Of a DNA stretch of 49,397 nucleotides, positions 5,375-48,351 are shown piece by piece (the stretch's first letter is position 1; the number at the start of each line of letters is the position of its first letter). Both the position numbers and the translations under genes were made by a program. The notes beneath the pieces are model-generated. The model saw only the letters and a list, made by a program, of their open reading frames with translations. It was not told the origin of the DNA and made no database searches. This DNA comes from a virus (Duplodnaviria; Heunggongvirae; Uroviricota; Caudoviricetes), in the IMG/VR virus record IMGVR_UViG_648861009_000005. The stretch is one strand, 5' to 3'.

Positions 5375-5540
5375 AATGGCAGCCTCTTGGTTGAGTATTA
5401 ATAACTCACCACCAAGGTTTTCCACGACCATAAGGGTGGTGAGGCGTACAGGGGTGGAAATACCGGTCAACCAAGAATCCGGCCAGCCTTGCAGCTGCCC
5501 TGCACGCCCCACCATAATCTGAATGTGGCTGTGCTTGACG

Positions 5541-5563
5541 CATAAAAAAACCGCCTGAGCGCG
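5541..5563 (-). terminator. Putative intrinsic terminator
   Basis: On the minus strand, hairpin accgc-gctcag-gcggt followed by T7. Confidence 0.4.
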
Positions 5564-5850
5564 GTTATGCGCTTGATTGAATTCCGGGTTTCCACGCCCG
5601 GCACCCGTTTTATGAGGTGCAGGTGCACTATAATTCCACCCGTTCTGGTTTTCAATAGCTACATTCAACATTTTCTCTTACCTTTCATCACCGAAGTGAA
5701 CTTTGTTGATGCGGTGCCTGGTGCCTCCAGGTGACGTTAACCAGTTAACAATTAACGCCGGATACAGAGAATCCACCCATAACACTGTTTTTGGTTTTAA
5801 CTGTTCCGCGTGCGCTTAGCCGCATTCACCGCATCACAAAATTCACTTTA

Positions 5851-5903
5851 AAAAGGGTGGCAGAGCAGTCACGGAGTAGAACTGATGCCACCAAAGACTA
5901 CAC
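5851..5903 (-). ncRNA. dicF: DicF-like small RNA
   Basis: Minus-strand sequence UUUGGUGGCAUCAGUUCUACUCCGUGACUGCUCUGCCACCC + U5 matches K-12 DicF as recalled, with paired substitutions that preserve the terminator stem. Confidence 0.65.
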
Positions 5904-6201
5904 ATGGGTATTGTGGCGGGGCTGTCACTTAAGCGTATGGTCAACCTGACAACCCGGTGCATTTTCTGGAGCAATGGAGGAAACCCCAGCCATACTTACC
6001 GCCGCGCCATTTCGCGGATTGCCACAACCGGAAGCGCACGATCGAATTAAATTTAACGACGACCTATACAGAGAGACTAACTTCGCCGGGCGCTTTCGTG
6101 TTATGCCCTGACTTTTCAGGGATATATCCTTTTTAGTAAACTGTCAGTGCCGGATTCTTATCCGTGTCCGGCGCACGCACTCTACCTCACCTGTGAATAA
6201 A

Positions 6202-14109: not shown

Positions 14110-14367
14110 ATACAGCGAACGCCATTGGTTTAGTTGGATATTTACTGTGCCGGACAAAAACGGTTTGCGGGGAAATCTTAGTTAAGTAGAATAACTGCGG
14201 GTGCTTGAGGCTATCTGTCTCAGGCATGAACACCAAAAGGCAGATAGAGAAAAGCCCCAGTTAACATTACGCGTCCTGCAAGACGCTTAACATTAATCTG
14301 AGGCCATATCTATGCGACACATAGAGATTAGCCTCTTACGGACCGAAAGGTCAAGGAGAAGCAGGCT

Positions 14368-14523
14368 ATGAAGCAGCAAAAGGCGATGTTAATCGCCCTG
14401 ATCGTCATCTGTTTAACCGTCATAGTGACGGCACTGGTAACGAGGAAAGACCTCTGCGAGGTACGAATCCGAACCGGCCAGACGGAGGTCGCTGTCTTCA
14501 CAGCTTACGAACCTGAGGAGTAA
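14368..14523 (+). CDS. hok: Hok/Gef-family type I toxin
   Basis: 51 aa MKQQKAMLIALIVICLTVIVTALVTRKDLCEVRIRTGQTEVAVFTAYEPEE, the canonical Hok/Gef sequence; not in the ORF track because it is below the size cutoff. Confidence 0.85.
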   Translation: MKQQKAMLIALIVICLTVIVTALVTRKDLCEVRIRTGQTEVAVFTAYEPEE

Positions 14524-14591
14524 GAGACCAGGCGAGGGAGAAATCCCTCGCCACCTCTGATGTGGCAGGCATCCTCAACGCACCCGCACTT

Positions 14592-14619
14592 AACCCGCTT
14601 CGGCGGGTTTTTGTTTTTA
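14592..14619 (+). terminator. Intrinsic terminator downstream of hok
   Basis: Hairpin aacccgc-ttcg-gcgggtt followed by a T-run. Confidence 0.55.
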
Positions 14620-14639
14620 TTTTCAACGCATTTGAAGTT

Positions 14640-15033
14640 NNNNNNNNNNNNNNNNNNNNNNNNNNNNNNNNNNNNNNNNNNNNNNNNNNNNNNNNNNNNN
14701 NNNNNNNNNNNNNNNNNNNNNNNNNNNNNNNNNNNNNNNNNNNNNNNNNNNNNNNNNNNNNNNNNNNNNNNNNNNNNNNNNNNNNNNNNNNNNNNNNNNN
14801 NNNNNNNNNNNNNNNNNNNNNNNNNNNNNNNNNNNNNNNNNNNNNNNNNNNNNNNNNNNNNNNNNNNNNNNNNNNNNNNNNNNNNNNNNNNNNNNNNNNN
14901 NNNNNNNNNNNNNNNNNNNNNNNNNNNNNNNNNNNNNNNNNNNNNNNNNNNNNNNNNNNNNNNNNNNNNNNNNNNNNNNNNNNNNNNNNNNNNNNNNNNN
15001 NNNNNNNNNNNNNNNNNNNNNNNNNNNNNNNNN
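14640..15033. other. Assembly gap (394 N) with duplicated flanks
   Basis: 14466-14639 repeats at 15034-15207 (one T difference). Confidence 0.9.
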
Positions 15034-15306
15034 AATCCGAACCGGCCAGACGGAGGTCGCTGTCTTCACAGCTTACGAACCTGAGGAGTAAGAGACCAGG
15101 CGAGGGAGAAATCCCTCGCCACCTCTGATGTGGCAGGCATCCTCAACGCACCCGCACTTAACCCGCTTCGGCGGGTTTTTGTTTTATTTTCAACGCATTT
15201 GAAGTTCTGGACGGTGCCGGAATAGAATCAAAAATACTTAAGTAGCGCGCAGGGATAAGAGGGATGGTCCCTTAAAGGGGAGAGCTAATTATCCGGAAGG
15301 ATTCTG

Positions 15307-16963: not shown

Positions 16964-17332
16964 ATGACCGAACGCATAGAATTTGTTTTGCCTTACTCGC
17001 CGACGGTGAACACTTACTGGCGACGCCGTGGCAGCACATATTTTGTATCAAAAGCCGGGGAGCGTTATCGCCGGGCAGTGGCGCTTATTGTTCGCCAGCA
17101 GCGACTGAAATTAAGCCTGTCCGGACGGCTGGCAATAAAAATTATTGCAGAGCCACCGGATAAGCGTCGTCGTGACCTGGACAATATTCTGAAAGCACCA
17201 CTGGATGCGCTGACGCACGCGGGGTTGTTAATGGACGATGAGCAGTTTGATGAAATCAATATTGTACGTGGCCAGCCAGTATCTGGTGGACGGCTGGAGA
17301 TAAGAATTACAGAGGTGGGTGTGCATGAATAA
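16964..17332 (+). CDS. rusA: RusA Holliday-junction resolvase
   Basis: 122 aa; PDKRRRDLDNILKAPLDALT and GGRLEIRITE match E. coli RusA as recalled. Confidence 0.85.
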   Translation: MTERIEFVLPYSPTVNTYWRRRGSTYFVSKAGERYRRAVALIVRQQRLKLSLSGRLAIKIIAEPPDKRRRDLDNILKAPLDALTHAGLLMDDEQFDEINIVRGQPVSGGRLEIRITEVGVHE

Positions 17333-18014
17333 CCAGTATTTACAGTTTGTTCGTGAGCAACTCATGATTGCCACTGCAGATCTCAGTGGGTCGACAAAAT
17401 GCCAGCTGGAAGCCTGGCAGGAAAATGCCCTGTTCGATACAGGGCGTTACAGACGCAAAAAAATTCGTTACCGCGATGAGGTAACCGGAAAAATGATCAC
17501 GCGGGATAATCCCCCGATCCAGGGTAAACAATCACTGGCGAAAGGCTCATCAATTGCGCTGGTCAGTCCTGTTGAGTTTGCAACATCATCGTGGCGGCGT
17601 GCTGTTCTGGAACTGGAAGAACATCAGAAGGCGTGGTTGTTGTGGTGTTATGGCGGAAACATTTGCTGGGAGCATCAGATCGCGATAACGCAGTGGGGGT
17701 GGAGTGAATTTAAAACTCAGTCCGGCTCCAGAAAAATTGCAGTGAAAACGCTGGAGCGTGTGAAGAAGTTGATCTGGCTGGCGGCACAGGATGTCAGAGG
17801 ATGGGTTACCGGGTGTGAGGTCTACCAGAGACAGGAGCTTGCCAGACTGTGTGGAGTTAAGCCTGATAACTGGAGCCATAATTATGCGAACTACTGGCGT
17901 GAGATGTGCGATATTTTTAAGCGCCTCGATAGAGAATCCTTGATTTGCTCCGTGAAAATAAGAGCGCAACAAAAAGCGACCTTTTCACGACGAGATATTG
18001 CAAAAGTCAATTAA
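17325..18014 (+). CDS. Q: Late-gene antitermination protein Q
   Basis: Position directly upstream of the lysis cassette and a terminator; lambdoid Q-family size; start overlaps the rusA stop. Confidence 0.75.
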   Translation: MNNQYLQFVREQLMIATADLSGSTKCQLEAWQENALFDTGRYRRKKIRYRDEVTGKMITRDNPPIQGKQSLAKGSSIALVSPVEFATSSWRRAVLELEEHQKAWLLWCYGGNICWEHQIAITQWGWSEFKTQSGSRKIAVKTLERVKKLIWLAAQDVRGWVTGCEVYQRQELARLCGVKPDNWSHNYANYWREMCDIFKRLDRESLICSVKIRAQQKATFSRRDIAKVN

Positions 18015-18080
18015 ATCGCGTATGTTTCGTATAAATCTGATATTTTGCCGATTTTGTACGTGATGGCAAAGTAAGAAAAA
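18015..18080 (+). promoter_or_regulatory. Putative late promoter (PR'-like) and Q-utilisation region
   Basis: TATAAAT -10-like element at about 18038-18044, between the Q stop and the terminator. Confidence 0.3.
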
Positions 18081-18103
18081 ACCACCGCCAGGTGGTTTTT
18101 TTT
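18081..18103 (+). terminator. tR'-like intrinsic terminator
   Basis: Hairpin accacc-gcca-ggtggt followed by T8. Confidence 0.6.
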
Positions 18104-18226
18104 ATGTCCGAAAATCGCGTCAGTACAGTAAACGCGCTGGTGGTTGCGAATACGGGTCTTTCAGCTTGCCGGCTTTTTCGACAAGAGTTATTGGTATGTC
18201 ACGTTAACCGGAAAAGGGAAAAAGAC

Positions 18227-18424
18227 ATGCTAAAACAGCAGGATATGACAGAAGCCGCCAGAGTGGTGTTTAATGAATTAAGCGTTACCGACCCGGCGAC
18301 AGTCAGGGAGATTGCACAGAATACTTACCTTTCACGCGAACGCTGCCAGTTAATACTGACCCAGCTTGTTATGGCGGGTCTGGCAGACTATCAGTTTGGT
18401 TGTTACAGACACCTTCAGTCCTGA
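18227..18424 (+). CDS. Hypothetical small protein
   Basis: 65-aa ORF with AAGGGA RBS. Confidence 0.35.
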   Translation: MLKQQDMTEAARVVFNELSVTDPATVREIAQNTYLSRERCQLILTQLVMAGLADYQFGCYRHLQS

Positions 18425-18738
18425 AGGCTTTTTTATTTGTGGTAAATGGGCGGCTGGTGGGTGTGGTGGTTGTTGCTTTCCCGTTGCTGAAAAAGAAAAC
18501 GCCAGACTGTTAGCCGGGTATCAGTTAGCGGGAGAAATTTTTTAAATACTTCACAATTCAGGCGGTTGACTGTTGTCTGGTTTGCGGGGAGTTTGTTAAA
18601 AGAAACTGGCATGGTGAATCCCCCTGTGCGGAGGGGCAATCAGCGAGTAGGTATATGGGATAATCGCGGATTCAGGTGCTGGTACTGAATTCACCGGGAG
18701 GCACCCGGCACCATGCAATGGCACATAGCGCCACTCTC

Positions 18739-18775
18739 CAGCCCCTCTCCGGAGGGGCTGTTTATATTGATTTTG
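18739..18775 (+). terminator. Intrinsic terminator
   Basis: Perfect 9-bp stem cagcccctc-tccg-gaggggctg followed by a T-rich tract. Confidence 0.5.
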
Positions 18776-18794
18776 TCAGATGTGAGTAAACTCC

Positions 18795-19130
18795 TTATGG
18801 ACTTTGTTGTTTTAGCCCATAAGGACATATTTGCAGAGTGCAACGGTTATTAAAGCATTCATTCAATACGTTATCTGTATTTGTAGGGCATTCCTGGCTG
18901 TTTTTGATTAAATTCCAGAATGTTTTATTGAATGGTACTACGTTGTAAATGGTTACAGGTAGCACTTTGTTATTGAGCATGATACCTGTGTGAGTCAGTG
19001 TAAATATACTTTCAGGAGGTAAGAAAGCATCCGATTGATACCAGATTATTAATTTTATTTTACTCCATATGACTGAAAAAGATATTCCGCATGATGGCTG
19101 GATAACTGTATCAATCACAATCCACTTCAT
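18795..19130 (-). CDS. Hypothetical protein, AT-rich moron on the opposite strand
   Basis: 111-aa ORF with AAGGAA RBS in a low-GC island between Q and the holin; no recognisable domain. Confidence 0.35.
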
Positions 19131-19390
19131 TTAGTTTCCTTGTTTATGCCTTGCTGGTGATGTTCTGAAAAGTATAAATGATATTTTTGATTGTAAACCA
19201 TAGAGCAGAATTATTTTTCTGATGTTGTTTATTGTTTATTTAAATGCAGGGTGGTTTATATCTCGTCTTGTAGTTTATCCATGCATATCTGCTTGATGAT
19301 GAGGTTTTTATTTAAGGTATGGTTTTGTGTTTTTTCTGTATTACATGTCAGGTATTTTAAAGAATCATTTTTCAGATGGTGGAAAGAACC

Positions 19391-19579
19391 ATGGCATTTA
19401 AACACTATGATGTTGTCAGGGCGGCGTCGCCGTCAGATCTTGCGGAAAAGCTGACACATAAACTGAAAGAGGGCTGGCAGCCGTTTGGTAGTCCGGTGGC
19501 CATAACCCCTTATACCCTGATGCAGGCGATTGCAGCAGAAGGTGATGTGGTGGTCAGTGGTGCAACTGAGCCGGAGTGA
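19391..19579 (+). CDS. Hypothetical small protein upstream of the holin
   Basis: 62-aa ORF (MAFKHYDVVRAASPSDLAEKL...). Confidence 0.35.
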   Translation: MAFKHYDVVRAASPSDLAEKLTHKLKEGWQPFGSPVAITPYTLMQAIAAEGDVVVSGATEPE

Positions 19580-19886
19580 TACTACGTCATCGTACTGGCC
19601 CGGCATTCCAGGCCATAAAAGACGGTCTGGCAGTGGGACTAAATGCACTGACGCTGACGGATATTACCAAAAATGCAACGTATGGCGTTGAGATAGAAAG
19701 TCTGGTGCTGGAGATAAATGCACCGGCATCATCATAAAAAGTGAGCCAGTCAAATGGAAGGTATCGTTAAACTCACCGGTAGTGTCAGTGGGTCGTCTGA
19801 GACGCCTGCATGAGTTATCAGAGCCATCAGTACTTAACTGGTGGCTTTTTTATTGTTGTCAGCTTCCGGATAACGGGAGACGGGGT

Positions 19887-20102
19887 ATGTACCAGATGGA
19901 AAAAATCACAACAGGTGTGTCATACACCACGTCAGCGGTGGGAACGGGCTACTGGTTCCTGCAGTTGCTGGACAGGGTTTCCCCGTCTCAGTGGGCGGCA
20001 ATAGGCGTGCTGGGGAGTCTGCTGTTTGGGCTGCTGACATATCTGACTAACCTGTATTTCAAAATCAAAGAGGACCGGCGTAAGGCGGCGCGGGGAGAGT
20101 AA
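19887..20102 (+). CDS. S: Class II holin, phage 21 S-like pinholin with dual start
   Basis: 71 aa; [22 protein letters not shown]...[21 protein letters not shown] matches S21; Met1 and Met4 dual-start motif. Confidence 0.85.
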
Positions 20103-20106
20103 AGTG

Positions 20107-20997
20107 ATGAATAAAAAATATGAACTGGTTGTTAAGGGGATAAATAATTACGGGGATAAGGTTACTGTTACTGTGAAGTCGGAAGGTGACGGGCAAGCGT
20201 CGCTGTTGTTGCCAGATGTGGCGATTAGTCTTGACCGTACTGAAGGTGCCACGCTGGAGTTTTACGAAGCTGAGGCGAAAAAGCAGGCGAAGCAGTTTTT
20301 CATGGATGTTGCTGCCGGGTTATGTGAATGGAACGAACCGTTGCCGGAAAAGCGCCCCGTAATTTTAGAGGCGCAGGATGTGTTGATAACCTACAAAGGA
20401 AAGCTACCGGGAAGAATTACTTGTTCTCTGAAGATGCCGCCGTCAACACTGCGGTCAGAAAAAGATGATGTTGAATCACGTATTGAAAAACTGGAGAGCT
20501 ACGTCGTTGAGCTGAATAAGAAATGGTCGATATTGGTGCCTTCTGGCGATGAAAAGCAGTTTGCTGCGTTTGACGATTATTGTCGGAAAGTGATGAGCAG
20601 AAATCTCGCAGAGTGTTTCAGTATTCATAATGATAATTTCAGTGACCCGGAATGGGAGTGTAACCGGCCATCCTTTGTTGTATCCGGTGATGCTGGGAAA
20701 ATAACCATCTCAGAAAATGGGAAAGTAACACCTCCATCGCACCAGCACAGTGAGGAGCTCATTGAATTTGCCATTGATTACCTGAAGAACAATAAAAAGC
20801 AGGGGCTGATGAAGCGCGTTGGCCGTTGCATGGGATATCTTCAGGTAGCCGCTGAGATTGAAGCGCTGGCCAGTGGTGCTGATAAGGATGCAATTGTGCG
20901 GGAGGCTCTTCTTCGTGATTTTAATACTCCACCCTTTAAAAAAGGGCCGGCTTACTGGCTTCATCCGGGGCTGACTTATCTTAAAGTGCGTATTTAG
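20107..20997 (+). CDS. Hypothetical soluble protein (296 aa) inserted between holin and endolysin
   Basis: Clean ORF with no TM or signal peptide and no motif I recognise; lower GC than its neighbours. Confidence 0.5.
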   Translation: MNKKYELVVKGINNYGDKVTVTVKSEGDGQASLLLPDVAISLDRTEGATLEFYEAEAKKQAKQFFMDVAAGLCEWNEPLPEKRPVILEAQDVLITYKGKLPGRITCSLKMPPSTLRSEKDDVESRIEKLESYVVELNKKWSILVPSGDEKQFAAFDDYCRKVMSRNLAECFSIHNDNFSDPEWECNRPSFVVSGDAGKITISENGKVTPPSHQHSEELIEFAIDYLKNNKKQGLMKRVGRCMGYLQVAAEIEALASGADKDAIVREALLRDFNTPPFKKGPAYWLHPGLTYLKVRI

Positions 20998-47767: not shown

Positions 47768-48351
47768 TGGCATTCAGAATGAGTGAACAAGCACGGACCA
47801 TAAAAATTTATAATCTGCTGGCCGGAACTAATGAATTTATTGGTGAAGGTGACGCATATATTCCGCCTCATACAGGTCTGCCAGCAAACAGTACCGATAT
47901 TGCACCACCAGATATTCCTGCTGGCTTTGTGGCTGTTTTCAACAGTGATGAGGCATCGTGGCATCTCGTTGAAGACCATCGGGGGAAAACGGTTTATGAC
48001 GTAGCGTCAGGGGACGAGTTATTTATTTCTGAACTCGGTCCGTTACCGGAAAATGTTACCTGGTTATCGCCGGAAGGGGAGTTTCAGAAGTGGAACGGCA
48101 CAGCCTGGGTGAAGGATACGGAAGCAGAAAAACTGTTCCGGATCCGGGAGGCGGAAGAAACAAAAAACAACCTGATGCAGGTAGCCAGTGAGCATATTGC
48201 GCCGCTTCAGGATGCTGCAGATCTGGAAATTGCAACGGAGGAAGAAACCTCATTGCTGGAAGCCTGGAAAAAGTATCGGGTGTTGCTGAACCGTGTTGAT
48301 ACATCAACTGCACCTGATATTGAGTGGCCTACGAACCCTGTCAGGGAGTAA
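47767..48351 (+). CDS. tfa: Tail fibre assembly protein Tfa
   Basis: Size and position match lambda Tfa; start overlaps the stf stop. Confidence 0.85.
48190..48351 (+). repeat. Direct repeat, copy 1 (tfa 3' end); copy 2 at 49235-49397
   Basis: About 160 bp with roughly 88% nucleotide identity flanking the methyltransferase gene. Confidence 0.8.

Follow-up and report, generated by a model that had tools for sequence, protein, structure and literature searches.

A known anti-adaptor gene, iraL, and an STnc100-family sRNA gene in the Q-to-holin interval of a lambdoid prophage

What is encoded by the AT-rich DNA between the antiterminator gene Q and the holin gene of this prophage, and is it independently expressed cargo or decaying DNA? 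The window, by which we mean the whole stretch of 49,397 nucleotides that was analyzed, is a complete lambdoid prophage flanked by potC and potB and colinear with that of E. coli 7/2. An earlier note, made from the letters without database searches, had described here a tR'-like terminator, a small ORF, a GC-rich structured segment and an AT-rich stretch with a gene on the opposite strand, and had read the latter as accessory cargo. We consider it very probable that this region, between Q and the holin gene of a lambdoid prophage at potB/potC, is an already known module of lysogenic conversion with two self-contained genes, iraL and STnc100. Both genes, as well as the decayed nanS-p gene beside them, have been described previously, and nothing in the region is new: a 2014 paper already gives iraL, the target of its product, the promoter and the location in the prophage, and STnc100 is a curated Rfam family.

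In the mechanism that we propose, iraL would be transcribed on the minus strand from its own sigma-70-type promoter, independent of phage late transcription, and its product would bind the adaptor RssB and block delivery of RpoS to ClpXP, such that the lysogen would keep more RpoS in exponential growth. The STnc100-family sRNA would be made from the plus strand, with promoter-like elements and a terminator of its own. The iraL gene itself would be a moron gained as an AT-rich cassette and, once the prophage is induced, Q-modified polymerase starting at pR' would pass the three plus-strand terminators without stopping and continue antisense through iraL.

Layout and composition of the interval

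The borders of the cargo interval were assigned with Pfam. On the left is the late-gene antiterminator Q (17319–18014, plus strand, 231 aa; PF06323 Phage_antiter_Q, E=2.2e-82), labeled ‘bacteriophage antitermination protein Q’ in RefSeq, and on the right is a class II holin of the phage 21 S type (19887–20102, plus strand; PF04971, E=7e-33). Directly 3' of Q, a terminator scan places the tR'-like intrinsic terminator at 18076–18107 (plus strand), an 11-bp hairpin between an A-run and a T-run; given these flanks, the predicted hairpin can be bidirectional. Rfam hits to STnc370, Phe_leader and isrK at 18021–18145 score below gathering and were treated as terminator-driven noise. The small ORF is present at 18227–18424 (plus strand) and encodes a 65-aa winged-helix (TrmB-like) protein, with a score for PF01978 (TrmB) of 19.4 bits that falls under the 25.6 cut-off. 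It belongs to a separate module common to Stx2 phages and phiP27, and its counterparts in phiP27 and phiSTEC1575 are annotated as ‘TrmB family transcriptional regulator’.

At the end of this ORF the scan finds a terminator-like hairpin (18412–18427) with a T-run, together spanning 18412–18437 (plus strand). A homology junction lies just 3' of this element, and near-identity with E. coli CFT073 begins only at ~18453–18460. The left end of the block in common with CFT073 is a remnant of a small DUF3927 gene (18453–18513, plus strand), the last 60 nt of which align with the 3' end of the CFT073 DUF3927 CDS C_RS29130; the DNA is then 99% identical to CFT073 from ~18460 to beyond 19900. Terminator-like sites are enriched around the interval (8 in 17900–20000 vs. 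2.1±1.7 in shuffles). ARAGORN detects no tRNA genes across the window, unlike the situation in CFT073 and in other Q-S intervals.

The GC profile bears out the AT-rich stretch, with 32.9% GC for the block at 18770–19390 vs. 50.6% for the whole window. Only ~2% of 621-nt windows are equally low in GC, and these fall at the integrase end (1312–1876) or on a masked N-run. The rightmost part of the block, which separates the iraL promoter from the esterase remnant, is an AT-rich spacer (19264–19390, no strand assigned, ~30% GC) for which a Rfam search gave no match. An extreme ‘GC’ minimum at 14608 was discarded as an artefact of the masked run, which comprises 394 N (14640–15033) and lies inside an apparent tandem duplication of a hok/sok module (14465–14639, repeated at 15034–15206). 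Elsewhere in the window, Rfam hits above threshold are C4 antisense RNA, isrK and DicF near dicB (5432–5906, minus strand), sok next to hokD (14199–14370), and IS009 (48110–48308), which overlaps the 3' end of the tail-fibre assembly region and a SAM methyltransferase gene.

Identity and expression of the minus-strand gene

Based on sequence identity, the minus-strand gene is iraL, an already characterized prophage gene (18795–19130, 111 aa), encoding an RssB anti-adaptor of the IraM/IraL/RssC family. The opposite-strand gene was correctly read as having its own ribosome binding site (SD AAGGA at 19137–19141, 6 nt upstream of the ATG). Its product is identical at 111 of 111 residues to CFT073 IraL (WP_000871291.1), and is the same RefSeq protein as the 111-aa ORF product in CFT073, E2348/69 and strain 7/2, where it is labeled an IraM-family anti-adapter. 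The NCBIfam model NF007393 (anti-adapter protein IraM; cut-off 121 bits) matches at 162 bits, with residues 1–110 placed on profile positions 1–113 of 114. A Pfam scan of the protein returns no match, which is presumably why the gene had looked domain-less; the statement that it has ‘no recognisable domain’ does not hold, and the case is an example of a Pfam-negative protein that should not be equated with one lacking any recognizable domain.

In a gap-free alignment of 107 residues, IraL and K-12 IraM share 62% identity, and phmmer against the Protein Data Bank recovers 8TWD chain A (the IraM core) with E=9e-32 over residues 1–78. Entry 8TWD is the crystal structure of IraM with RssB, in which the IraM core is a PmrD-like beta-barrel comprising residues 1–78. 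When the alignment is compared with the published list of IraM residues that contact RssB (clusters I–III), 10 of 13 are identical in IraL, including all of cluster I (I4, I6, W22, K26, I42); the changes from IraM to IraL are T13S, H63N and I64V.

IraL (c1429) was described in the ‘potB island’ of CFT073 by Hryckowian et al. 2014 (PMC4045071). Deletion of iraL lowers RpoS in log phase in both CFT073 and Shigella sonnei and halves the RpoS half-life, from ~5 to ~2.5 min (PMC4045071). IraL copurifies with RssB, and two-hybrid analysis shows binding to the RssB N-terminal domain (PMC4045071). Transcription of iraL from its own promoter in the lysogen, RssB binding by its product, the block on RpoS delivery to ClpXP and the rise in exponential-phase RpoS are experimental results for the identical CFT073 protein, and the RpoS effect was also shown with S. 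sonnei iraL (PMC4045071). The value of the annotation is that it marks a lysogen in which exponential-phase RpoS is probably raised by a prophage gene.

The 5' end of iraL was mapped in CFT073 by 5' RACE (ACATCACCAGCAAGGCATAAACAAGGAAACCA; PMC4045071). This sequence occurs on the minus strand of the window from 19163, with one mismatch in the 32 nt quoted, and a transcription start site (TSS) at 19163 gives a leader of 33 nt. Placing the published RACE sequence on the window in this way defines the 5' UTR and promoter, from +33 to −100, at 19131–19263 (minus strand). The hexamers were assigned by inference from the sequence as a candidate −10 (TATACT, 19171–19176) and a −35-like element (TTTACA, 19192–19197), with a short spacer of 15 nt between them. 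The −100 to +33 region is 97.7% identical to that of CFT073 (130/133), with SNPs at 19133, 19164 and 19191 (+31, −1 and −28, respectively), and promoter identity was at least 96% among all iraL strains in the published survey (PMC4045071). In that study, iraL had its own sigma-70-type promoter, and DNA from −100 through the coding region was enough to raise RpoS in K-12 (PMC4045071). For the identical CFT073 gene, the RACE start and the promoter support the view of the earlier note that this is independently expressed accessory cargo.

Expression of iraL is also seen in transcriptome data. RNA-seq of CFT073 shows increased iraL mRNA on a shift from 23 to 37 C and in a fur mutant, and iraL is present in EPEC RNA-seq and RIL-seq, with low expression (baseMean ~12). 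No Fur box match of at least 12/19 was found in 19100–19400; therefore, the increase in the fur mutant is probably indirect. Neither a terminator scan nor folding located a canonical minus-strand terminator after iraL: the iraL stop codon lies within a 12-bp hairpin (18783–18826, minus strand) that is followed only by GUUUACU, a weak U tract.

Given that IraM belongs to the same protein family, the gene could instead be a functional orthologue of K-12 IraM, responding to Mg2+ starvation through PhoP/PhoQ and not an exponential-phase anti-adaptor. A PhoP-box-like direct repeat, TGTTTATTGTTTATTTA, at 19226–19242 (11/12; 63–79 nt upstream of the iraL TSS) would fit such control; it is identical in CFT073, and no other site in the window scores 11/12 or better. 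However, the repeat is not significant, as 91 of 2000 local shuffles (4.6%) match as well and 40% of whole-window shuffles reach a PhoP-box match at one mismatch. Furthermore, BLAST aligns only the coding part of iraM with iraL (71%), the upstream DNA of iraM being without similarity, and iraL is active in log phase in LB and binds RssB in a mode that differs from that of IraM (PMC4045071). We regard PhoP/PhoQ-induced IraM orthology as improbable, and favor the assignment of the gene as iraL, acting in exponential phase.

STnc100, the cassette and possible regulatory links

The GC-rich structured segment to the left of iraL corresponds to an STnc100-family sRNA gene with its intrinsic terminator (18580–18769, plus strand; Rfam RF02076). 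The match covers the full model (1–206) with 132.4 bits and E=4e-30, for a gathering score of 47, and the minimum free energy fold reproduces a multi-stem structure and the terminator. The perfect 9-bp stem seen earlier is the STnc100 terminator (18739–18760; 7 GC pairs, 4-nt loop, T-rich tail); the earlier note had the segment right and missed its identity. A simple promoter scan gave nothing on the plus strand for STnc100. Two blocks located 5' of GCATGGTG, TTGTCTGG and TTTGTTAAAA (18573–18609), are invariant across four STnc100 copies, with spacers that vary, and the resemblance of the two blocks to a −35 and an extended −10 suggests a candidate promoter. The STnc100 relative PasD2 has its mapped start at GCATGGTG; from this and the invariant blocks we infer that the STnc100 start is likely near 18609, ~29 nt inside the Rfam model.

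EHEC EDL933 has 11 copies of the STnc100 family, whose members are transcribed there (one of them Northern-verified); members overlap the Hfq-bound EcOnc27 downstream of stx2B, and members are considered relatives of PasD. We rejected identity of the window copy with PasD1 or PasD2, since the only match is to the PasD2 5' end (42 nt, 79%) and PasD1 and PasD2 are located in other E2348/69 prophages. The PasA/PasC sRNAs of E2348/69, which lie between esterase and holin, are absent from the stretch between the esterase remnant and the holin here, with no blastn match in the window and only 64% identity in a forced alignment.

The borders of the AT-rich block were placed by comparison with phages. 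In phage JLK-2012, which lacks iraL, STnc100 occurs with an intact yjhS/nanS-p esterase gene of 1.85 kb; window positions 18447–18725 and 19398–19610 align to this phage, with 673 bp in between in the window vs. 172 bp in the phage. A copy of STnc100 in phage 640R1 has the terminator in common and diverges just 3' of it. Together, these comparisons bound the cassette at ~18770 on the left and, on the right, at the start codon of the esterase gene (19391). By alignment, the AT-rich block of ~620 bp is a discrete iraL cassette, an indel relative to JLK-2012; the comparison with a related phage and the location in the same interval as stx agree with the moron-site cargo proposed in the earlier note, which had delimited the region correctly. 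The features expected of a moron that are found here are the promoter mapped by RACE in CFT073, 33% vs. 51% GC, and absence from JLK-2012; a clear minus-strand terminator is not among them.

To the right of the cassette is an internally deleted nanS-p/yjhS sialate O-acetylesterase gene (19391–19737, plus strand), recognized by PF08410 (DUF1737, E=4e-17) and the JLK-2012 alignment. A DUF1737 ORF at 19391–19579 represents the esterase 5' end and a 53-aa ORF at 19576–19737 the 3' end. The 5' end of JLK-2012 yjhS aligns with window 19398–19610 and its 3' end plus the holin with 19595–20105, the two alignments overlapping by 16 nt (19595–19610); this split indicates that ~1.49 kb of the esterase gene is missing. 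Many genomes have an intact esterase after iraL, including E2348/69 PP5. The retained 3' end contains, at 19697–19727, GATAGAAAGTCTGGTGCTGGAGATAAATGCA, which is the PasA target site listed for E2348C_1246 in the EPEC RIL-seq motif tables. Beyond the holin, a 297-aa ORF (20104–20997) has an N-terminal DUF1327 (YdfR-like) domain; the equivalent region of strain 7/2 is annotated in RefSeq as a truncated YdfR pseudogene, so the ORF is possibly a fusion or insertion.

A match to the iraL gene and its upstream region is present in 1446 of the 5426 complete E. coli genomes, with an identity of ≥95% in almost every case, and only 4 of 50,697 phage records contain the iraL region. STnc100 is adjacent in 1431 of the 1446 iraL genomes. 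A sialate esterase, intact or decayed, usually adjoins the pair, and the deleted-esterase arrangement extends through to the holin in 726 genomes. The joint occurrence of STnc100 and iraL in roughly one in four complete E. coli genomes adds modestly, at a descriptive level, to what is known. With respect to selection, a 94%-identical iraL allele has an intact ORF and a dN/dS of 0.41, while dN/dS for iraL vs. iraM is 0.19.

Foreign AT-rich DNA is commonly silenced, and the block might accordingly be viewed as a silent, decaying remnant, an H-NS-silenced pseudogene without a role in the lysogen. Its neighbors are degraded (the DUF3927 3' remnant and the internally deleted esterase gene) and the EPEC read counts are low. 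Nevertheless, the ORF is uninterrupted and its product is the same as a protein of demonstrated activity, dN/dS is below 1, the cassette is conserved at ≥95% in ~1400 genomes, and iraL transcription has been mapped and is regulated. We consider a remnant extremely unlikely; published RACE, RNA-seq and protein results on the identical allele contradict the absence of expression and the degeneracy that the earlier note had named as refuting its proposal. A conserved cassette with an active iraL is our preferred reading.

The arrangement also raises the possibility of regulatory input on iraL. The genes iraL and STnc100 are convergent and 25 nt apart, and iraL transcripts may extend antisense into STnc100, as there is no canonical minus-strand terminator before the STnc100 terminator; fragments of iraL in EPEC RIL-seq reach the position equivalent to window 18764. 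The same data contain 11 iraL-Spot 42 chimeras (p=2e-5). The sequence GAGGTAAGA occurs once in the window, inside iraL at 19016–19024 (codons 36–39, minus strand), so that nine consecutive nt of the mRNA are perfectly complementary to Spot 42 nt 11–19. One could argue from these data, and from the adjacency of the genes in nearly all iraL genomes, that the convergent genes iraL and STnc100 work as a functional pair, each transcript modulating the other, with Spot 42 adding a post-transcriptional input on iraL. On the other hand, the linkage is explicable by common descent of a single cassette, STnc100 occurs in many more genomes than the pair does (a match in 2860 vs. only 1431), and the duplex energy of the whole Spot 42 and iraL molecules is no better than that of shuffles, 34% of which are as good, which leaves the local 9-mer and the published RIL-seq chimeras as the lead on Spot 42. 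A functional pair of this kind seems to us rather unlikely, and the link between STnc100 and iraL may be purely positional.

It is similarly doubtful that iraL, rather than being a plain constitutive moron, is wired into host and phage regulation in three hitherto undescribed ways, by Spot 42 pairing, STnc100 convergence and Q-dependent antisense silencing. If this were true, Spot 42 pairing at codons 36–39 would link IraL, and through it the stability of RpoS, to catabolite status, the convergent STnc100 terminator would allow the sRNA and the iraL mRNA to affect each other, and Q-antiterminated late transcription would silence iraL by antisense collision on induction. We found no functional test of iraL-Spot 42 pairing in the literature searched.

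Comparison with known systems

The closest known system is CFT073 IraL, which is the same protein at the same potB/potC site with the same mapped TSS sequence. The flanks in CFT073 are also as in the window (99% DNA identity), with STnc100 on one side and the truncated DUF1737/esterase gene on the other. The two prophages differ to the left of the shared block, where that of CFT073 carries a different type of Q together with an IS200, three tRNAs and a complete DUF3927 gene, whereas the window has the 231-aa Q, tR', the TrmB-like ORF and only the DUF3927 remnant.

IraM (YcgW) of K-12, which is PhoP-induced, has the same RssB target, and its four C-terminal cysteines are conserved in IraL, which has four extra C-terminal residues. 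The K-12 iraM gene is at a different locus, next to e14, with upstream DNA unrelated to that of iraL. IraL is reported to bind the RssB N-terminal domain only and to act in log phase, while IraM acts under Mg2+ starvation. RssC of Salmonella is a member of the same family, reported in Salmonella only, and rssC has ~49% identity with iraL by ClustalW (PMC4045071).

The stx genes and other Q-S morons occupy the same hypervariable interval and, like iraL, are self-contained and of atypical composition in a lambdoid prophage. They differ in orientation and control: stx is co-oriented with late transcription and largely dependent on it, whereas iraL is on the opposite strand with its own promoter. 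The order of genes is also different, with stx2 upstream of STnc100 in Stx2 phages and iraL downstream of STnc100 in the window. Finally, PasD1/PasD2 and EcOnc27 of EPEC and EHEC prophages are found at the same Q-to-holin place, upstream of a sialate esterase gene, whereas the window STnc100 has iraL rather than the esterase as its next gene and is not preceded by stx2.
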